Assembly: GCA_963764625.1 (NCBI GenBank)
Contig: CAVXTH010000006.1
Location: 416,001 to 480,000 of the forward strand
Source: Candidatus Krumholzibacteriota bacterium
GTDB lineage: Bacteria; Krumholzibacteriota; Krumholzibacteriia; JAJRXK01
DNA: 64,000 bases
Direction: 5' to 3'
The notes beneath the pieces are model-generated. The model was not told the DNA's origin. It made no database searches and saw only the letters and a list, made by a program, of their open reading frames with translations. Of the stretch, positions 53,579 to 62,882 are shown piece by piece. The first letter of the stretch is position 1. Every line of letters begins with the position of its first letter. The translations under genes and the position numbers were made by a program.

Positions 53579-54841
53579 TTGTCACAGTTCTTCCAACCGC
53601 CGGAGATCGACACGGGAAACTCGCAACGGGTCACCGCGGTAGCGGGGCTTTCCGCACTTTACGGTCTCCGGCTTCTGGGCATGTACCTGGTCTTGCCCGT
53701 GCTCAGCCTTTACGCCGCGAACTTGAGGGGAGAGACCGCTCTTTTGATCGGGATGAGCCTGGGGATCTACGGCTTCTCCCAGGCGCTCTTTCAAATCCCC
53801 TTCGGTATATGGAGTGATCGCTACGGCCGGCGCCGCGTCATCGCGATGGGGCTCCTTCTCTTCGCGATCGGGAGCGCGGTGGCGGCCCAAACCCATTCCA
53901 TCTACGGCCTCATTCTCGGGCGCTTTCTGCAGGGTTCTGGCGCGGTCGCGTCCGCTTTGGTGGCACTCATGGCCGACCTCAGCGGCCCGCGCTACCGCGC
54001 TCGGGCCATGGGAGCGGTTGGCGTTTCGGTGGGCATCGCGTTCGCCATGGGGATGGTGTTCGGGCCGGCCGTCTATCAGCGCATGGGAGCGCCCGCGATC
54101 TTCTGGCTCACGGCGATCCTCTCGGTGCTGGGAGTCATCTACGTCGGAGTCGGCGTCCCCAAGGTGCGAGAGTGGGAACACGACCACGAGATGGAATGGA
54201 CGAGGGGCCAGAGCACCACCCTCTTGCACCACCCGACCCTCCTGCGTCTCGACGCCGGTATCCTGGTCCTCCACCTCCTGGTGACCGCAGCTTTCGTGGT
54301 GGGGCCGACCTACCTGTCTCTGTACCGGCCGGTGGAGCAGCACGGCAGCATCTATGCCCCGATCGTCCTGGCCGGGGTGGTGGTCCTGGCCATCTCGGTT
54401 TTCGTCTCGGATCGCTTCGGTCGCCTGCGAGAAGCCATCGTCCTGGGGGGCATCCTGCTGTTGGCCTCCGCGGTGTTTTTGCTCTTCGCGACGAGGGGTC
54501 TGGTGTACTCCGTGGCGGTCATTGCCTGCATGGTTGGCGGCATCGCGATCGCCGAGCCGGCCATGCCGGCGCTCCTCACCAGTCTCGTCTCTGCCGATCA
54601 GCGCGGGACCGCGGCCGGCATCTTCCACACTTCACAGTTCACGGGCTCTTTTCTGGGAGGGATGGCGGGCGGCGCGATGCTGCGCCACCCGAAACCGGTG
54701 GGACTGGTGTTGGTCGGGATAGCCTGTATCTGGGTCGTGATCAGTTTGGGTCTGCTCTCCAAGAGGAGCTCGAAGCTCAGTTCCAGTTCCGCCGCGCCTG
54801 CCAGCGGGCGTGAAGGGAAAACGCCAGGGGGGCGAGACTGA
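53579..54841 (+). CDS. MFS transporter (YajR-like)
   Basis: LRLLGMYLVLPV, QALFQIPFGIWSDRYGRR and SQFTGSFLGG motifs. Confidence 0.88.
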   Translation: MSQFFQPPEIDTGNSQRVTAVAGLSALYGLRLLGMYLVLPVLSLYAANLRGETALLIGMSLGIYGFSQALFQIPFGIWSDRYGRRRVIAMGLLLFAIGSAVAAQTHSIYGLILGRFLQGSGAVASALVALMADLSGPRYRARAMGAVGVSVGIAFAMGMVFGPAVYQRMGAPAIFWLTAILSVLGVIYVGVGVPKVREWEHDHEMEWTRGQSTTLLHHPTLLRLDAGILVLHLLVTAAFVVGPTYLSLYRPVEQHGSIYAPIVLAGVVVLAISVFVSDRFGRLREAIVLGGILLLASAVFLLFATRGLVYSVAVIACMVGGIAIAEPAMPALLTSLVSADQRGTAAGIFHTSQFTGSFLGGMAGGAMLRHPKPVGLVLVGIACIWVVISLGLLSKRSSKLSSSSAAPASGREGKTPGGRD

Positions 54842-55733
54842 GCGCCAGGATCCAACCCGCGATCGCGTCGACTCCATAGTGAAACCCACCATAGACCGTG
54901 CCCACCGTCAGGGCCGGGACGAGCGCGGCGAGAAACCACCCCGCACGGCTGCGCGCCCTGAGCACCGTGATCCAGCAAATGGCGGCCACGGCGCAGTGCG
55001 AACTGGGGAAGGCCGTTCCCACCGAGGAGCCCGAATGCAGAATGGAGTGCACCAGAGGGGGAAAGAAGCGTCCCATGCTCGTGGGATCCGGTTCGGGGAA
55101 GTGGTGGAAGGGTCCCGCCACGGGAAACCCGATGAACACCAGCTGGCAGGCCACGAATACCAGCAGGAGGGCGCTGAGGTATTCCTCGACTTCCCTCCAG
55201 CGTCCGCCCAGGGCGAAGGCTACCAGGGGGGTCGGGATGATGATGTAATAGCTTAGGTAAGCAAAGTGAAGATATTCGGATAAAAGGAGATAAGGCATCC
55301 TTTGGTGAAGCACCAAGGGGAGTACCTGGCCGTGAAATAGCGCGCGTTCGAGTCCCAGGATCGTCTCGTCGAAATAGCGGGAGGCGAAGAACATGTCGTT
55401 GAGGTCGCGGGCCTCGGCATAGAGCAGAGGGATGAAGAGGAGGGGGAGGATCCTGCGGGCCCAGGCCACAAACCGATTCTCGATGCGCGCCGGCGCACGG
55501 TGCAGGACGAGGAGAAAGAGAACGATCGCGAGATTGCCCGCCAGCAAGCGCACCCAATGAGCGACCCCCGCGTGAAAGAACGGCAACAGGAGCACCGTCA
55601 ATAACAGATACGCCCCCACGATGCCCTCGGAAGGGCGGAGACCCCGGCCGAACTGATCCGCCGCGAGGATGCCGGGTGCACCTGTCGTCGCTGGCTTCGC
55701 GGCCGAACCCGCTTTGCGGGGGCGCGCGTTCAT
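54777..55733 (-). CDS. PAP2-superfamily membrane enzyme, AUR1/IPC-synthase-like
   Basis: AYLSYY, FPVAGP, AFPSSH and YGGFHYGVD (H/H/D triad) motifs; multiple TMs. ATGA overlap with the upstream SDR gene. Confidence 0.75.
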   Translation of the reverse strand: MNARPRKAGSAAKPATTGAPGILAADQFGRGLRPSEGIVGAYLLLTVLLLPFFHAGVAHWVRLLAGNLAIVLFLLVLHRAPARIENRFVAWARRILPLLFIPLLYAEARDLNDMFFASRYFDETILGLERALFHGQVLPLVLHQRMPYLLLSEYLHFAYLSYYIIIPTPLVAFALGGRWREVEEYLSALLLVFVACQLVFIGFPVAGPFHHFPEPDPTSMGRFFPPLVHSILHSGSSVGTAFPSSHCAVAAICWITVLRARSRAGWFLAALVPALTVGTVYGGFHYGVDAIAGWILALSLAPLAFSLHARWQARRNWN

Positions 55734-56707
55734 AGCCACCCTGCCTCCCGGTACCAGTCCATCGTCGCGCGCATTCCCTCCGCGAGCTCAACTTGGGGCC
55801 GGTAGGCGAAACGCGCGGCTGCTGCCTCACTGCTGCAGCTGTACGAGCGCGCGCAGAAATCGCGCGCTTTCTCCCTTCCGAACATGGCCTGACGTCCCAA
55901 GAGGCTGTGCGCGGCGTCGTTCACCGCTCCGGCGGTGCGAACCAACCAATCGGGGAGGGTGAGGACGAAGACGCGGCGTCCCGCCGCGCCGGTGAGAGCG
56001 GCTCCGATCTCTGTCCAGCTGTGCGGCGTTCCGTCGCTGAGAAAATAGGTTCCGATCCCGCCCTCATGCTGCGAGGCGGCCACCATGCCCGTCACCAGAT
56101 CCTGCACGTGGATCAGGGAGAGCAGCCGTTCGCCCGATCCCACGCAGAACGCGAAACCACGGGCTGCTAGGGCGAAGAGAGGAAGCGTGGCCGCGTCGCG
56201 CGGTCCGTACACCGCTGGCGGCCGAATCACGGTCAGCGCCGGTCCCGAGAGCGCGCGCAGGGCGACCTCGGCCTCCAGTTTGGAGCGGCCGTACAGACTG
56301 TGGGGATGAGGCCGATCCTCTTCGCGATAGACGCGTCCCTCCCCGCCAGCTCCCATGGCCGCCAAGCTGGACACGAAGATGAAGCGTCCCTGCGCGGGGG
56401 CGAACTGGGCGAAACGGCGATAGAGAGTGAGGGTGGCGTCGACGTTCACGCGGCGAAAAGTCTCTCGGCGCGCTGCCTTAAGCACCGCCGCGACGTGAAA
56501 TACGCGGTCGACCCCGTGTAGGGCGGCTTCGGGAATTTCCCCTTGGGCAAGCTCTCCGTGGTGGATTTCCACTCGATCCGTGTCCAGGAACCGTAGCTTC
56601 GAACTCTTGCGGACCAGCGCGCGAACCTCGTGCCCTTGGCGCAGAAGTTCGTCCACGAGATGGCTTCCCACAAAACCGTTGGCGCCGGTGACCAGGACTG
56701 CCACCAC
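55730..56707 (-). CDS. NAD-dependent epimerase/dehydratase-family SDR, candidate ceramide (3-oxo) reductase
   Basis: TGANGFVG, VSSLAA, YGRSK and RPPAVYGP motifs. Function inferred from operon context. Confidence 0.75.
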   Translation of the reverse strand: MVAVLVTGANGFVGSHLVDELLRQGHEVRALVRKSSKLRFLDTDRVEIHHGELAQGEIPEAALHGVDRVFHVAAVLKAARRETFRRVNVDATLTLYRRFAQFAPAQGRFIFVSSLAAMGAGGEGRVYREEDRPHPHSLYGRSKLEAEVALRALSGPALTVIRPPAVYGPRDAATLPLFALAARGFAFCVGSGERLLSLIHVQDLVTGMVAASQHEGGIGTYFLSDGTPHSWTEIGAALTGAAGRRVFVLTLPDWLVRTAGAVNDAAHSLLGRQAMFGREKARDFCARSYSCSSEAAAARFAYRPQVELAEGMRATMDWYREAGWL

Positions 56708-56713
56708 AGGACC

Positions 56714-57835
56714 TCAGAGTTCTTTCTGATAGATGCGGTAGGTGCGGTAGGGCTCCCCGGCTAATTTCTGCAGGGGAACGATCATTGGCACGTTGTCTTC
56801 CAACACCCAGGAGCATTCGGCCCAATCGTAACCCTTGGCCAAGCCTGCCTTCACCACCGCCTGGATGAGAACACCATCGAGTCCCTTGCCTCGCATTTCG
56901 GGGACGATGCCCAGAGTGACGACCCGAATGCCGTCGATCTTGCGTTTGTGCCACAAGATCTTCAAGAGCCCCAGGGGGAAGAGGCGACCGTTGGCTTGCT
57001 TCAGGGCCACGTTCAGATCGGGCAGAGCCAGGATGAACCCCAGGGGTTCTCCGCTCTCGACGTGCTCCAGGAAGAAGACGACATCGGGGTCGATGCCGTA
57101 ACGGAGTTCGGAAGCGAAGTGACGGACTTCGCTCTCGGTCATGGGAACGAAGCCCCAGTTCTTCTCCCAGCAGCGGTTGTAGAGATCGAGTATGCGGTCA
57201 ACTTCCTTGGGGAAGTCCTTCATGTTCAAGCCACGCAGACGCACCCCGTGTCGTGCGATCAGTTTGTCCGCCAGCGCCAACAGTCGATCGAGCTCGGGAC
57301 TCCGGCGCACTTTGAAGGCCAAGAGGTCCTTCGCTTTGCTCAAACCCGCCGCTTCGTATCGCGCCGGATACCAGGAAGGATTGTAGTTCATCATGATCAC
57401 GGGGGGACCCGGTTCACCGCCCACCAAGAGACCGCAGCTCTCGTTGGTGGAGAGCTCGAACGGACCGAGCGCATGACTTCGACCTCTGGATTTCAACCAG
57501 GAGAAAGCCTCTTCGAACAGAGCCGCCGAGGCTTCGTCATCCTCGCGCAGCGCATCGTGAAACCCGAAGAATCCCACTTCGTCGCCGTGGAATTCGTTGT
57601 GGGCCCGGTTGACTTGCGCCACTACCCGGCCCACCACTTTCCCGTCGCGCCAGGCGAGAAATGGCTGAACCTCGCCGTGTTCATGGAAGGGGTGTTGCCC
57701 GGGAGTGAGCAACTTGCTCTGGTCGGACTTGAGCGGTGGCACCCAGTACGGATCATCCCGGTAGATTTGCCAAGCCAAGTCGATGAATCGCTTGAGATCG
57801 GCGCGACCCTGTACCGGACGGATCGTAAGACTCAT
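56714..57835 (-). CDS. GNAT-fold acyltransferase, bacterial ceramide synthase (bCerS)-like
   Basis: FIDLAWQIYRDDPYWVPPL, VGR, GFFG, GPF..STNE.CGLL, MMNYNP, NWGFVPMT, LPDLN and SWVLEDN motifs. Directly downstream of the SPT gene. Confidence 0.78.
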   Translation of the reverse strand: MSLTIRPVQGRADLKRFIDLAWQIYRDDPYWVPPLKSDQSKLLTPGQHPFHEHGEVQPFLAWRDGKVVGRVVAQVNRAHNEFHGDEVGFFGFHDALREDDEASAALFEEAFSWLKSRGRSHALGPFELSTNESCGLLVGGEPGPPVIMMNYNPSWYPARYEAAGLSKAKDLLAFKVRRSPELDRLLALADKLIARHGVRLRGLNMKDFPKEVDRILDLYNRCWEKNWGFVPMTESEVRHFASELRYGIDPDVVFFLEHVESGEPLGFILALPDLNVALKQANGRLFPLGLLKILWHKRKIDGIRVVTLGIVPEMRGKGLDGVLIQAVVKAGLAKGYDWAECSWVLEDNVPMIVPLQKLAGEPYRTYRIYQKEL

Positions 57836-57856: not shown

Positions 57857-59086
57857 TCAGATGAGCCCAAGTTCCTTGCCGACCCGGCGGAAGATCTCGA
57901 GCGCGCGGTGCAGTTGATCGTCGGTGTGGGTGGCGATGTACGAGGTCCGTAGCAGGGCTCTGCCTTCGGGGACCGCGGGGGAAACCACGGGGTTGGTGAA
58001 GACTCCGCCGTCCAGAAGTGTCCTCCACAACTGGAAGGCCATTCTCGACTCACCGATGACGATGGGGATGATGGGCGTCTCGGTCAATCCCACGTCCCAA
58101 CCCATTCCCGTCAGTTCGTTCTTCATCAGGTTCTGAATTTCCCATAAACGGACGCGTCGTTCGGGTTCGGTCCGGATGATCTCGAGACTCTTGAGGACCG
58201 TGGCCACTGCGTAGGGGGGGATGGCGGCGGAGAAGATCATGGGGCGAGCGTTGTGGCGCAGGAAATCGATGACCGCGCTGTCGCCCGCCATGAATCCCCC
58301 GATCGAAGCGAAGGACTTGGAGAAGGTCCCCATGATGAGATCGGTCTCGGCGGCCAGACCGAAATGATCGGTCACTCCCGCCCCCTTGGGGCCGACGACC
58401 CCCAGCGAATGGGCTTCGTCGACGAGGACGCGCGCGCCAGAGGCATGGGCCAGCTCCACAACCTGGGGGAGCGGCGTCAAGTCCCCGTCCATCGAAAAGA
58501 CCCCGTCGACTGCGATGAGCACTCCCCGGTTGGTGGGAATCCGCTGGAGTTGATCGGCCAGGTCGCGCATGTCGTTGTGCCTAAAGCGCGCGACTTGGCC
58601 GGCGGCCATCATCGCGCCGTCCACGATACAGGCGTGATCCAGCTTGTCGATGAGCGCCGTGTCGTCGCGACCCACCAACGCCGCGATGCAACCCAAGTTG
58701 GTTTGATAGCCGGTGGAGAAGACGAGGCTCTCTTCCTTGCCCACGAACTCCGCCAACTCGGCTTCGAGCTTCAGGTGGAGGTCGAGCGTGCCGTTCAAGA
58801 AGCGGCTTCCGGTGCAGCCGGCGCCATAGGATCGGGCGGCTGCCTCACCCGCCTCCAGCACGCGAGGATCGTGGGTGAGTCCCAGATAGTTGTTGGAGCC
58901 CAGCATGACCACCGGCTTGCCGGCGATCGTCACTTCGGTTCCTTCGCTGCCCTCGATGGGAATGAAATAGGGATACAATCCCGTGGCGCGAGTCTCCCGG
59001 GCTCGGGTGTAAGAGGCTGCCTTCTGGAAGACATCCTCGCGCTCTTGGGTGTTGGGTTTGCGACTCGTCTGTGGATTTGGATTCAT
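57857..59086 (-). CDS. spt: Serine palmitoyltransferase (alpha-oxoamine synthase family)
   Basis: LYPYF, MLGSNNYLGL, GCTGSRFLNGTLDLH, DEAHS and GTFSKSFAS (PLP lysine). These match SPT rather than BioF or Kbl, which typically have GTLGKA. Confidence 0.82.
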   Translation of the reverse strand: MNPNPQTSRKPNTQEREDVFQKAASYTRARETRATGLYPYFIPIEGSEGTEVTIAGKPVVMLGSNNYLGLTHDPRVLEAGEAAARSYGAGCTGSRFLNGTLDLHLKLEAELAEFVGKEESLVFSTGYQTNLGCIAALVGRDDTALIDKLDHACIVDGAMMAAGQVARFRHNDMRDLADQLQRIPTNRGVLIAVDGVFSMDGDLTPLPQVVELAHASGARVLVDEAHSLGVVGPKGAGVTDHFGLAAETDLIMGTFSKSFASIGGFMAGDSAVIDFLRHNARPMIFSAAIPPYAVATVLKSLEIIRTEPERRVRLWEIQNLMKNELTGMGWDVGLTETPIIPIVIGESRMAFQLWRTLLDGGVFTNPVVSPAVPEGRALLRTSYIATHTDDQLHRALEIFRRVGKELGLI

Positions 59087-59092
59087 CGATTC

Positions 59093-59812
59093 TTAGACGT
59101 CCAGGAGAGAGAGATCCTCGGTGTCGCCGCCAGGCCCCCAATAGGCTTCCTCGGTTCGCGGCGCCCGCGGGGCAAAGAAGAATAGCGCTAAGATGGCACT
59201 CAGCAACAGACCAGCAAGAAGGACGGGAATCCACCAGGCGATCGGCCCCGTCTGCAGATTCTCGCGGAGATCGTCCCAGCTATGAGCTTCCACTGGATTC
59301 AACACGATTTTCAGCGACCATGCCAGGAGAAGTACTGCGTAGATCACCCAGTAATTGCGAGTGAACCTGGCCCTCAGGGCCGACAACAAGGTGATCTTGA
59401 ACTGGGGATTGAGAAGATCCGCCGCCACCCGCTGCCCCCAGGCCTCATCCGGGCTGACCGGATCCCGCCGCAGGATGGGCCCGTAGAAATTCTCCTCGAT
59501 CATGCGCACCCGGGCCCTCCACACGTCGAAAAAGCGGAAGCGCCGCGCTTCGTAGCCGAGCAGGGCGCTGACGAGCAGGAACCCCACCAAGAGACTCCAG
59601 TGTGAATGCCCGGTGGAGCTGAAGGAATAGCTCAGCAGTCCGGCGGTCGTCAAGATGGCCCAATTCGTCGTGGTGTCCAGCCGCAGACGCCAGGCGTTGG
59701 CCCGGTACAGCTCTCCTCGATAGAGGTGTACGACCGCCGTCACGTACTCGGCACGGCTGAGCGCTTGGCTTTCGTAGTCCGCGCGACCTGTCTGCTCAGT
59801 GACCACCGTCAT
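59093..59812 (-). CDS. DUF2270-family membrane protein
   Basis: HLYRGE...WRLRLDTTTNWA, EARRFRFFDVWRARVR.IE and AW..KI motifs. Confidence 0.8.
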   Translation of the reverse strand: MTVVTEQTGRADYESQALSRAEYVTAVVHLYRGELYRANAWRLRLDTTTNWAILTTAGLLSYSFSSTGHSHWSLLVGFLLVSALLGYEARRFRFFDVWRARVRMIEENFYGPILRRDPVSPDEAWGQRVAADLLNPQFKITLLSALRARFTRNYWVIYAVLLLAWSLKIVLNPVEAHSWDDLRENLQTGPIAWWIPVLLAGLLLSAILALFFFAPRAPRTEEAYWGPGGDTEDLSLLDV

Positions 59813-59936: not shown

Positions 59937-61052
59937 ATGCGAATCCTCGAGTTGGGAAAATTCTACCCCCCGGTGCGTGGCGGGATGGAGAGCGCGCTCG
60001 AGCAAATCTGCTTGGGTTTGAGGGGCCATGGACACCGGATTCTGGCCCTGGTTTCGGCCGACGGAAGACGGCCCAGCCTGCGCCTCGTGCGGGGAGTGGC
60101 GGTTTGGCGACTCGCGCGCTGGGGTCAGCTTCTGAGCGTTCCCCTGAATCCCCACCTCGCCAGGGCCCTGCACCGAGCCCAGTGGGGGTTTCGTCCCCAG
60201 CTGGTGCATCTGCACCTGCCCAACCCCTCGATGGCGCTCGCCTGGCTGCTCTTCGGCGACCCGCGCTTGCCCTTGGTGGTCAGCTACCACAGCGACATCA
60301 TTCGACAGCGGCGCTGGAAGTGGCTCGTGGAGCCGTTGCGCCAGCGCGTTCTGGCACGTGCGGCGAGAATCGTGGTGACCAGCGAGGCCCTGAAAAGCTC
60401 CAGCCAGAGCCTGACGGGGCACCGCGCGCGCTGTATCGTCATTCCTCTGGGGGTCGACGTAAACGCGATCACCCCCGGTCCGCCGCTGAACCCGGAGACC
60501 CTTCCCTTCCCTCGCTACTTTCTCTTCGTCGGCCGCATGGTGTACTACAAAGGTCTGGAGATCCTGCTCGCCGCCCTTCAGGAGGAAGAGATGCCTCTGG
60601 TGGTAGTGGGGGAAGGGCCGCTGCGAAGGCGCTGGGAGGAGCAAGCGCGGGCGCGAGGGATGATCGCCCGGGTGCACTTCGCGGGCGAAGTCTCCCCCGA
60701 GAGGCTCGATACCCTCTACCGCGGCTGCATCGCCCAGGTGCTTCCCAGTACGGCGCCGAGTGAGACCTTCGGCCTGGTGCAGCTGGAAGCCATGGCCCGC
60801 GGAAGACCGGTGGTGGCGGCGCGCGCCTCCGGTGGGGTGGTCTCGGTCCAGGAAGAGGGCGTCACCGGCCTCTTGGTTCCGCCGGGCGACGCCCCCTCGC
60901 TCGCATCCGCGCTCCGGACACTCTGGGACGACCCGGAACGTGCCCACGCAATGGGGGCTGCGGCCCGGGAGCGGGTGGTGGCACAGTTCGATCAGCGGCG
61001 GAGAATGGCGGAAATGGCGGGGGTCTTCCAGGAGCTGGTGCGTGATGGATAG
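59937..61052 (+). CDS. GT4-family glycosyltransferase
   Basis: KFYPPVRGGME, HLHLPNP, YHSD, VGRMVYYKG and ETFGLVQLEAM (EX7E) motifs. Confidence 0.92.
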   Translation: MRILELGKFYPPVRGGMESALEQICLGLRGHGHRILALVSADGRRPSLRLVRGVAVWRLARWGQLLSVPLNPHLARALHRAQWGFRPQLVHLHLPNPSMALAWLLFGDPRLPLVVSYHSDIIRQRRWKWLVEPLRQRVLARAARIVVTSEALKSSSQSLTGHRARCIVIPLGVDVNAITPGPPLNPETLPFPRYFLFVGRMVYYKGLEILLAALQEEEMPLVVVGEGPLRRRWEEQARARGMIARVHFAGEVSPERLDTLYRGCIAQVLPSTAPSETFGLVQLEAMARGRPVVAARASGGVVSVQEEGVTGLLVPPGDAPSLASALRTLWDDPERAHAMGAAARERVVAQFDQRRRMAEMAGVFQELVRDG

Positions 61053-61902
61053 TCAAGATCAGGTTCGGTTTCTCACCCCGTGGACTCTGCTGCTCCCCGC
61101 CGGCGGGGGACGGGTTCTCACCGCGGTGGGCAGCGGGGGCAAGAGCGCACTCCTGGACCGCCTGTACCGCCACTATCGCGCCGAGGGGTTCAGCGTGCTG
61201 TGGACGCAGACGGTGGATCACGCTCCTCCTAAGGGCCTGATGGCCAGGAGCGACTCGGCTCCGCTGGACGAACTGCGGAGGGAGTTTCGCCATCACGCCG
61301 CGCTGTTCGTGGCGGGGGAACGCGATGCGGAGGGACACGCGCGCGGGCTTTCGGCCTTGAGGGTGGAGGAGCTTCGCCGCGCCCTCGCCCCCGAGGTGGT
61401 GCTGGTGGAAGCCCAGGCCAGGCGGGACAGCGCCGCGCTGGCAGAGCTCGGGCCGCCGGAGTGGCCCGCGCCGGTTCATCTGGTTTTCGCGGTAGCGGGC
61501 TTGCAGGCAGTGGGAAGAATCCGAAGCCATGGCACCGAGGGTGCGCTTCGCTCCGAGCTGAGCGTAGAGGGCGACCCGCCGCTGCGCGTTTGCACCCAGG
61601 ACGTACTGCGCCGCTTCACCGCCCCCGGTGGGCTTCTCGATCTCGTCCCGCAGGGAGTGCCCTGCTTGCCCTTCCTCGCCGGTCTCGGGAGCTTCCGTGA
61701 CCTGGACGGGATGTTCGAGCTGGTGGCGACACTGTGGGAGGACACGCGCGTGAAAGCGGTTTTGCTGGGTGAACTGATCGGGCAGGAACGAATCGACGCG
61801 GCGGAAGAGGCGGCAGCGGCTCCGCTGGGAGGTGCTCCGCATCTCTCAGGGGAACGCGTCTACGCTCTCTATCCTTCGCGGTTGGACGAAGCATCCGAGT
61901 AG
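61045..61902 (+). CDS. Degenerate YqeC-like P-loop protein
   Basis: VLTAVGSGGKS...GFSVLWTQT and VVLVEA resemble YqeC (VGAGGKTT, VLVTTTT, LVEADG), but key residues diverge. Overlaps the GT4 stop. Confidence 0.5.
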   Translation: MDSQDQVRFLTPWTLLLPAGGGRVLTAVGSGGKSALLDRLYRHYRAEGFSVLWTQTVDHAPPKGLMARSDSAPLDELRREFRHHAALFVAGERDAEGHARGLSALRVEELRRALAPEVVLVEAQARRDSAALAELGPPEWPAPVHLVFAVAGLQAVGRIRSHGTEGALRSELSVEGDPPLRVCTQDVLRRFTAPGGLLDLVPQGVPCLPFLAGLGSFRDLDGMFELVATLWEDTRVKAVLLGELIGQERIDAAEEAAAAPLGGAPHLSGERVYALYPSRLDEASE

Positions 61903-62030
61903 GAAGTTGTCGCGTGCTCGCTCGCTCCCTATACTGACGCGCGTCGAGACGATCCCGAAGCAGAGCGTCTCCCACACCAACTCGCCCCACGTCATCACAA
62001 TCTCGCCGTTTAGTGCAGAAGGAGTCCTGC

Positions 62031-62882
62031 GTGCCTCAGATTGGAATCAATGAGCCGCTGCGCGAACTCGAGTTCGTCGCGTTCGATACCGAAACCACCG
62101 GGCTCTCCGCCGCGATGGAGCGCGTGGTGGAGCTCTCCGCCGTGCGCTTTCGATTTGACGGAACGCAACTCACAAGCTTCGACGAACTGATCGATCCGAA
62201 GCGGCCCATTCCCCCCGACGCGGCACGGATCCACGGGATCAGCGACGCCATGGTGCAGGGGAAGCCGTCTGTAGACGAAGTACTGCCCCGCTTCCTGAAA
62301 TTCTGTGAAGGCGCGGTTCTGCTGGCCCACAACGCGGAGTTCGATCTCGGCTTCCTCGTACACGAAGCGGCGCGAGGTGAGATCACTTTGCCCACGCCGC
62401 CCGTGCTGGATACCGTCGAGATTTCGCGACGGCTTCGTCCAGATCTACCCAATCACAAACTGGCGACGATCGCGCGCGCCCTGGGCTGTGAGCCGACCAC
62501 CTACCATCGAGCGCTCGCCGACGCCGAGACTCTCAAGTCGAGCTTTCTGAAACTGATGGAAGAGCGACACCAGCAGAGCACTCTCGCCGATCTTCTCAAC
62601 GACACCGGGAGCGCGTTGACCTTCGGCTGGCCCGATCGCACGCGAGCCTGGTTGCCTCCGCGGCTGCGCGCCATCGACGACGCCATGATGTCCGGGAGCA
62701 AGGTCACCATCGTCTATCGACCCGAGGGACATCGCGAGGAGGCCCGCGAGATCGTGCCGCGCGCGTATTTGCGGCGCCCGGGGGTCACCTTTCTCATGGG
62801 CCGACTCGACGGGGGCGCGGATCGGAATTACCGCCTTGCGTGGATCGTGCGGGCTCATATGGCCCAGGCCACCCTTTTTTGA
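62031..62882 (+). CDS. DEDDh 3'-5' exonuclease (DnaQ-like) with C-terminal WYL-like domain
   Basis: FDTETTG, HNAEFD and HRALADA exonuclease motifs. C-terminus AMMSGSKVTIVY...REIVP...RNYRLAWI. AAGGAG RBS before GTG 62031. Confidence 0.8.
   Translation: MPQIGINEPLRELEFVAFDTETTGLSAAMERVVELSAVRFRFDGTQLTSFDELIDPKRPIPPDAARIHGISDAMVQGKPSVDEVLPRFLKFCEGAVLLAHNAEFDLGFLVHEAARGEITLPTPPVLDTVEISRRLRPDLPNHKLATIARALGCEPTTYHRALADAETLKSSFLKLMEERHQQSTLADLLNDTGSALTFGWPDRTRAWLPPRLRAIDDAMMSGSKVTIVYRPEGHREEAREIVPRAYLRRPGVTFLMGRLDGGADRNYRLAWIVRAHMAQATLF

Follow-up and report, generated by a model that had tools for sequence, protein, structure and literature searches.

Which head group does a bacterium place on its ceramides, and from which lipid would that group be taken, when the genes for ceramide synthesis run directly into a gene for a membrane protein of the PAP2 superfamily? 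This question is raised by a stretch of 64,000 nucleotides (hereafter the window) from Candidatus Krumholzibacteriota bacterium (GenBank assembly GCA_963764625.1, contig CAVXTH010000006.1, positions 416,001 to 480,000), in which such a gene lies on the minus strand at 54777..55733. We call it the PAP2_3 gene after the Pfam family to which its product belongs. Our analysis argues with good confidence that the PAP2_3 protein is a ceramide phospho-head-group transferase of one kind or another, and it makes it probable, with less assurance, that the gene encodes an inositol-phosphoceramide (IPC) synthase, an Aur1-like enzyme with phosphatidylinositol (PI) as its donor. According to its predicted structure the protein is most likely an eight-helix inner-membrane enzyme of the PAP2 (lipid phosphatase/phosphotransferase, LPT) superfamily that is built like the yeast enzyme and drug target Aur1, and the layout of the reading frames indicates that its gene is most likely the last of an operon in the order DUF2270-spt-bCerS-cerR. 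The substrates, the product and the side of the membrane on which it would act are what we infer.

The gene, its motifs and its fold

In the list of open reading frames of the window the PAP2_3 gene stands in a minus-strand frame at 54777-55739, with the stop codon at 54777-54779. Translation from the ATG at 55733-55731 gives a protein of 318 residues; a GTG at 55739, two codons upstream of this ATG, is an alternative start, and the start of the gene is uncertain by these two codons. The plus-strand letters at 55730-55733 are TCAT, thus the minus strand reads ATGA at 55730..55733 and the ATG of the PAP2_3 gene overlaps by four nucleotides the TGA of the gene upstream, which encodes a short-chain dehydrogenase/reductase (SDR). 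Judged by this arrangement, the PAP2_3 gene is translationally coupled to the SDR gene. The preliminary description of this DNA had named both the overlap and the coupling, as well as FPSSH and HYGVD motifs in a protein with multiple transmembrane segments; the coordinates and the ATGA overlap agree with the former, and for the latter the motifs were read codon by codon and eight long helices were found in the model.

Comparison of the protein with the Pfam profiles PAP2_3 and PAP2, which the preliminary description had proposed as a check, placed it clearly over the cut-off of the first and barely over that of the second. The match to PAP2_3 (PF14378; gathering cut-off 27 bits) scores 69.9 bits with an E-value of 3.2e-19 and covers profile positions 2-186 of 190. 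With the general PAP2 model the score is 27.6 bits against a cut-off of 27.2, and its C1 part is missed because the match spans profile positions 47-127 of 130, the C2-C3 part alone. A homologue search in 5.8 billion proteins, in which 8000 candidates were scored, yielded 342 matches at E<=0.001, and all 120 homologues among the matches listed are PAP2_3 proteins. Those with names come from Krumholzibacteria, Eisenbacteria, Gemmatimonadota and Longimicrobiales metagenome-assembled genomes (MAGs) and are called only "phosphatase PAP2 family" or "membrane-associated phospholipid phosphatase"; a search of the ESM Atlas matched only unnamed bacterial PAP2_3 clusters and offered no functional lead.

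The residues that would form the catalytic centre are strictly conserved. In an alignment of 27 homologues with 33-77% identity to the query, H246, H285 and D289 are invariant in all 27, as are the whole AFPSSH block, P204, V205, G207 and P208; in the N-terminal half the invariant residues include Y42, Y105, E107, D122, E153 and H156. Three segments on the minus strand carry the motifs: FPVAGP (residues 203-208, 55110..55127), the equivalent of motif C1 according to the alignments and a check of the residues, FPSSH (residues 242-246, 54996..55010), which is motif C2, and FHYGVD (residues 284-289, 54867..54884), which is motif C3. The invariance of the His-His-Asp triad together with the E-value of the PAP2_3 match takes the observation of these motifs beyond chance.

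A further line of evidence is the fold. The AlphaFold2 model, built from the 27-sequence alignment, has a mean pLDDT of 92.3, a pTM of 0.89 and eight long helices, and when it was searched with Foldseek the only matches at E<=0.001 were two entries of Aur1 from S. cerevisiae (E 1.3e-4; Aur1 is represented by PDB 9vj3, 9vj4 and 9ivc). Pairwise comparison with VIA-align gave Z 18.3 for Aur1 chain 9vj4_A (258 residues aligned, root-mean-square deviation (rmsd) 4.1) and Z 18.0 for 9ivc_A (265 residues, rmsd 4.3), and the match extends over model residues 32-310, thus including the N-terminal helices that lie outside the six-helix LPT core. The next best structure is the phosphatase LpxE, with Z 13.0 over 163 residues (rmsd 3.0) and over model residues 119-307 only, and the other phosphatases score Z 12.2 or lower.

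The same relationship can be followed in the sequence. The profile match to Aur1 is marginal (E 0.078, 17-18% identity) and runs over nearly the whole length, query 16-287 against chain positions 39-316. It pairs FPVAGP with FPAAPP, AFPSSH with AFPSLH and FHYGVD with HHYFVD, so that the FPxAxP, AFPSxH and HYxVD segments coincide and the triad aligns residue for residue: H246 with H255 in the HMMER alignment, H285 with H294 and D289 with D298. In excerpts of the report on the yeast enzyme, each of these three Aur1 residues is described as essential for IPC synthesis, and Aur1 as strictly PI-specific (PMC13133130). The suggestion made at the outset, an Aur1-like protein with an H/H/D triad, therefore holds on four counts, namely the PAP2_3 match, the invariant residues, the Aur1 alignment and the fold. 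Aur1 differs in being longer (401 against 318 residues) and in working with a partner, Kei1, a feature that may be specific to fungi, whereas the PAP2_3 gene is bacterial and stands in an operon with spt, bCerS and cerR.

The sphingomyelin synthase family (SMS1/2, SMSr and trypanosomatid SLS) belongs to the same superfamily, has an H-H-D centre and transfers the phospho-head group of a glycerophospholipid to ceramide, as is predicted for the PAP2_3 protein. However, its structural resemblance is far lower (SMSr, Z 10.1, Foldseek E 0.095), and Pfam PAP2_C is not among the families matched by the PAP2_3 protein at E<=0.01.

If both termini are placed inside the cell, 15 lysines and arginines fall in the five predicted inner loops and 5 in the four outer loops, and this topology is predicted to bring all catalytic motifs to the outer face of the membrane. 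The active site is thus predicted to be non-cytoplasmic, as in Aur1. Such a position fits the periplasmic location of CerR that is given for Caulobacter in the available part of PMC11087976.

Linkage to the ceramide genes

Read from upstream to downstream on the minus strand, the operon has the order DUF2270, spt, bCerS, cerR and PAP2_3 gene. The original paper on Spt, bCerS and CerR is said to be that of Stankeviciute et al. 2022. The gene directly before the PAP2_3 gene (55730..56707) encodes the SDR mentioned above, a CerR-like NAD(P)-dependent extended SDR of 325 residues (Pfam Epimerase, 110.8 bits), and it is preceded by the gene of a bCerS-like GNAT acyltransferase of 373 residues (56714..57835; Pfam Acetyltransf_1, 30.1 bits), for which no NCBIfam model matched. 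Further upstream lies the gene of an Spt-like alpha-oxoamine synthase of 409 residues (57857..59086), whose best NCBIfam match is the serine palmitoyltransferase model NF047600 with 519.5 bits, below its cut-off of 640, while BioF scores 374 and Kbl 369. Six nucleotides upstream of spt a DUF2270 integral membrane protein is encoded at 59093..59812 (Pfam DUF2270, 189.8 bits); its gene is probably co-transcribed with spt and, in this lineage only, probably the first of the operon. All these genes are on the minus strand. Thus the set of a ceramide operon, an alpha-oxoamine synthase, a GNAT-type acyltransferase and an NAD(P) epimerase-family reductase, is present and clustered, and the genes for Spt, bCerS and CerR are often clustered in bacteria, as stated in excerpts of PMC11334938. 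A search of sequencing runs for this DNA listed 16 DNA runs, with a best share of words of 0.35, and no RNA run.

The linkage is not peculiar to one contig. When one genome per prokaryote species was scanned, at least 569 stretches were found to encode a relative of the PAP2_3 gene, and neighbours were counted by tblastn (E<=1e-10) in the best 80 of these loci, each taken with at most 7 kb of flank, many of them cut by contig ends. The 80 loci come from MAGs labelled Gemmatimonadota, Eisenbacteria, Krumholzibacteriia, Longimicrobiales and Poribacteria; the counts made on related loci, including the bCerS check given here and that of an inositol gene given below, include one unpublished genome (G232, L038), and no conclusion depends on it. 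A CerR-like gene is a neighbour in 60 of the 80 loci, a bCerS-like gene in 59 and an Spt-like gene in 50, while DUF2270 is found in 2, the GT4 glycosyltransferase gene of the window in 3 and its MFS transporter gene in 10, the last in Krumholzibacteriia and Eisenbacteria records.

Where CerR-like and PAP2_3 genes are found together, cerR stands directly upstream and on the same strand in 51 of 60 loci. The remaining nine (L042, L055, L064, L068, L069, L074, L077, L078 and L085), several of them labelled Longimicrobiales, have the order CerR-Spt-bCerS-PAP2_3 with the PAP2_3 gene after bCerS. Among the 51 adjacent pairs a start that gives a four-nucleotide overlap is available in 37 and one that gives a single-nucleotide overlap in 2, and the nearest PAP2_3 start lies within 30 nucleotides of the CerR stop in 48, counts for which the start codon nearest to the stop was taken, so that the gaps are biased towards small values. 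The exact -4 arrangement in 37 of 51 pairs is far beyond chance. Gene order and stop/start overlap are kept across Krumholzibacteriia, Eisenbacteria, Gemmatimonadota and Longimicrobiales records. The linkage of the PAP2_3 gene to ceramide genes is therefore conserved in several phyla that have been little studied; the preliminary description had tied its proposal to linkage with spt and bCerS in relatives, and such linkage is what the counts give.

No ceramide genes were found nearby in 18 of the 80 loci, and 13 of these 18 genomes have a bCerS homologue elsewhere. With the query used, bCerS was not found in the other five, which comprise four MAGs of Poribacteria and an unpublished genome. 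The Poribacteria MAGs (L048, L063, L073 and L076) carry PAP2_3 homologues of 37-39% identity that may do something else; in L048 no gene for the inositol enzyme discussed below was found either.

Presence and absence tell the same story within the phylum. Of 201 genomes sampled evenly from the phylum of the window, 89 contain the PAP2_3 clade and 86 contain bCerS; 84 have both and 110 have neither. The PAP2_3 clade occurs alone in five genomes, four of which are 68-75% complete, and bCerS alone in two. Thus 84 of the 86 genomes positive for bCerS carry the PAP2_3 clade, but the positives are mainly in two families, and because of this kinship the cases are less independent than the co-occurrence counts suggest. 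What the counts show is that the two genes are consistently inherited together, not that they came together independently each time.

The donor, the head group and the alternatives

The preliminary description had left the head group unknown and possibly new, and had suggested a search of the genome for myo-inositol-1-phosphate synthase (MIPS). This search was made in the genome to which the window belongs (G000; 3.57 Mb in 9 contigs, 96% complete), and its result does not favour a novel head group. A MIPS gene with 330.9 bits is found at G000:C6:874639-875859, on the same contig as the PAP2_3 gene and about 404 kb from it. Beside it (L005, G000:C6:866000-885000) lies a LysR gene, and downstream of it are genes for a DegT aminotransferase, a Bac_transf sugar transferase, Wzy_C and Polysacc_synt_2; inositol may also feed a surface polysaccharide. 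A DUF212 gene, annotated as "divergent PAP2", is also present near MIPS in this region. The genome encodes CdsA and a single CDP-alcohol phosphatidyltransferase, located on another contig (G000:C5:97010-97735; L006:1429-2157, minus strand). The latter is best described as similar to a phosphatidylinositol phosphate (PIP) synthase: it scores 150 bits with the archaetidylinositol-phosphate synthase model (cut-off 180), 128 with the PIP synthase model (170), 124.5 with the BT_1523-type model (350) and 33.8 against PgsA.

The inventory of other donors came out empty. No candidate for Psd was found in the genome, and the PssA and PgsA models gave weak matches on the PIP-synthase-like gene alone. 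The PgsA of a related locus, which is over the TIGR00560 cut-off, found in a tblastn search of the genome again the PIP-synthase-like gene alone (E 0.003), and in 10 genomes of the same family no PgsA was over the cut-off. Since no PgsA, PssA or Psd was found, no phosphatidylethanolamine (PE) or phosphatidylglycerol (PG) donor is evident in this genome; PI is the only glycerophospholipid with a visible head-group pathway and therefore the evident donor. As far as gene content can indicate, the head group is most likely inositol and unlikely to be a new one.

A bacterial precedent for such an enzyme exists in Bacteroides thetaiotaomicron. The Aur1 homologue BT_1522 of this organism is reported, in excerpts of PMC9246714 and PMC8791184, to be needed for IPC, as its deletion abolishes IPC and leaves PI intact. 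The reaction that we propose is the same, and both genomes hold MIPS and a PIP synthase, or in our case a PIP-synthase-like gene. The setting is different: BT_1522 belongs to an operon for inositol lipids, BT_1522-1526, together with genes for MIPS, PIP synthase and PIP phosphatase, whereas the PAP2_3 gene is part of a ceramide operon. BT_1522 is also described in the excerpts as matching Aur1 at E 1e-15, while the PAP2_3 clade matches it only marginally (E 0.078). The PAP2_3 clade is therefore probably separate from BT_1522 and more divergent, a distinction drawn from these two scores against Aur1.

Several findings weigh against an IPC synthase that uses PI, in addition to the marginal sequence match to Aur1 and the kinship of the phylum genomes given above, and they are set out here with the explanations that they would favour. 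The PAP2_3 gene is not clustered with inositol genes, as some 404 kb separate it from MIPS and the PIP-synthase-like gene belongs to contig C5, and the PIP-synthase-like enzyme stays below all three of its NCBIfam cut-offs. Co-occurrence with MIPS was tried as a test of the head group and was set aside: MIPS is found in 182 of the 201 phylum genomes, in 82 of the 89 with the PAP2_3 gene and in 100 of the 112 without it, and thus does not discriminate. Being nearly universal, MIPS is permissive and not diagnostic. Among 50 other genomes that carry the PAP2_3 gene (L007-L056 of the 80 loci) MIPS was found in 44 and not found in 6; four of these 6 are MAGs of Eisenbacteria that carry the complete operon.

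These observations could be explained if the PAP2_3 protein is a ceramide phosphotransferase that takes another donor, such as PG or PE, and makes ceramide-phosphoglycerol, ceramide-phosphoethanolamine or a lipid with an undescribed head group, either here or in some members of the family. The sequence itself does not tell which head group is used, and some sphingolipid synthases of the superfamily are bi- or trifunctional by donor, according to excerpts of PMC13133130. Five of the six carriers in which MIPS was not found were examined further (their completeness is unknown), and each holds 2-4 CDP-alcohol transferases; among the eight that were classified are PIP-synthase-like ones in two genomes and PgsA-like ones in the others, with one PgsA-like gene over the PgsA cut-off. 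Therefore, other members of the family might use PG. Yet Psd was found in none of these five genomes either, the genome of the window and its family lack a recognizable route to PG or PE as described, and the closest structure is that of the strictly PI-specific Aur1 (Z 18.3), not that of the PE-using SMSr (Z 10.1). We regard a different donor as a minor possibility.

It is less easy to maintain that the PAP2_3 protein is not a transferase but a lipid-phosphate phosphatase that acts on ceramide-1-phosphate, a sphingoid-base phosphate, PIP or undecaprenyl diphosphate. The PAP2 superfamily consists mostly of phosphatases, and of 14 control genomes 11 gave a match to Pfam PAP2_3 itself, E. coli and B. 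subtilis among them, therefore membership of the family alone does not show a transferase. In a profile search of PDB sequences LpxE and PgpB rank first, over the C2-C3 region only (residues ~220-290), and the single NCBIfam match is the undecaprenyl-diphosphatase SepP, with 19.8 bits against a cut-off of 250; no NCBIfam model names the protein. The PAP2 phosphatases (LpxE, PgpB, YodM and LPP1) do share the six-helix core and the His-His-Asp of C2 and C3. However, these hydrolases carry a C1 motif KX6RP and a C3 motif SRX5H, which are missing here. The C1 segment reads FIGFPVAGP, from F200 to G207-P208, without the phosphate-binding Lys and Arg, and in C3, where the phosphatases have SRX5HX3D, the HX3D part is kept (H285, D289) and G278-T279 replace Ser-Arg. 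The absence of the C1 Lys and Arg and of the C3 Arg is a hallmark of transferases, and in the HMMER alignment Aur1 lacks them as well. Furthermore, the phosphatases are without the N-terminal helices and none exceeds Z 13.0, so that the whole-length match to Aur1 stands about 5 Z units above any of them. A phosphatase is thus improbable.

The substrate PIP deserves separate mention, because a route through PIP synthase depends on a PIP phosphatase, and no such enzyme was identified in the genome. The distribution of the PAP2_3 gene matches that of bCerS (84 of 86 bCerS-positive genomes) and not that of MIPS, and as MIPS is present in 100 of 112 genomes that do not carry the PAP2_3 gene, we judged this role unlikely. 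A second, weak PAP2_3-like match (26.2 bits, below the cut-off) was observed at G000:C5:334104-334403 in a frame of 274 residues, which might encode a PAP2 phosphatase of the usual kind, such as the PIP phosphatase that is missing from the route.

The names bCerS and CerR are assigned by domain type and synteny, which also tempers our reading. That the linkage is irrelevant to function, with a substrate unrelated to sphingolipids and merely a shared transcript, would agree with the 18 loci without ceramide genes nearby and with the five genomes among them, four of Poribacteria, in which the query found no bCerS, but it is very improbable given that gene order and overlap are kept in four groups of records and that co-occurrence with bCerS is near-perfect within the phylum.

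Returning to the IPC synthase, a mechanism can be proposed by analogy with Aur1. D289 would activate H285, which would attack the phosphodiester of a glycerophospholipid, most likely PI, at the periplasmic face of the inner membrane; diacylglycerol would be released and a phospho-head-group-histidine intermediate would form. The (dihydro)ceramide supplied by Spt, bCerS and CerR would next have its C1 hydroxyl activated by H246 and would accept the phospho-head group, giving inositol-phosphoceramide if the donor is PI. CerR and the PAP2_3 protein, the last two products of the operon, would thus work one after the other on the outer leaflet of the inner membrane.

Neighbouring genes and the lipids of the family

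Several other genes surround the operon. An MFS transporter gene (53579-54841, plus strand) converges on the PAP2_3 gene and overlaps its 3' end with its last 65 nucleotides; its product could be a lipid exporter or flippase, or be unrelated. On the other side, and divergent from the operon, lies the gene of a GT4 glycosyltransferase (59937-61052, plus strand), for which the NCBIfam matches are weak and below cut-off, the inositol-phosphate glycosyltransferase MshA and GlcNAc-PG synthase among them; this enzyme might glycosylate an inositol lipid. Downstream of it, on the plus strand, are genes for a YqeC-like protein (61045-61899) and for an RNase_T exonuclease fused to a WYL domain (62013-62879), which appear unrelated to the lipid genes.

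To our knowledge, enzymes that attach the head groups of phosphosphingolipids are known for very few bacteria: Bacteroides with BT_1522 and Caulobacter with the Cpg genes. A bacterial homologue of Aur1 is therefore not new in itself; what sets the PAP2_3 gene apart is the location in a ceramide operon, the greater distance from Aur1 and the host phyla. A limited literature search, which returned much unrelated material, gave among its top-ranked papers no report of an Aur1-like gene inside an spt-bCerS-cerR operon, which is weak evidence of novelty, and no sphingolipid report for Krumholzibacteriota, Gemmatimonadota or the other carrier groups. With the PAP2_3 gene we have a candidate head-group enzyme that is physically and, by the overlap, translationally tied to the core ceramide genes and that has relatives in at least 569 stretches. 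It predicts a concrete lipid, IPC, as a target for environmental lipidomics, and it offers a small bacterial relative of Aur1, without a known partner subunit, for structural and inhibitor work.

One may go further and imagine a lineage that gave up PE, PG and cardiolipin for an envelope of inositol lipids, in which PI, made through a PIP synthase of the archaeal or actinobacterial type, would be the main glycerophospholipid, an Aur1-like enzyme would make IPC in the periplasm and the GT4 enzyme might extend it to glycosyl-IPC, like the glycosyl inositol phosphoceramides of plants and fungi; IPC would then be widespread in Gemmatimonadota, Eisenbacteria and Krumholzibacteria. We offer this picture as a speculation that is doubtful as a whole. 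Nevertheless, the gene inventory raises the prospect of a bacterial family in which both PE and PG may be missing, and a family of bacteria without pathways for PE, PG or cardiolipin would, if true, be unusual.

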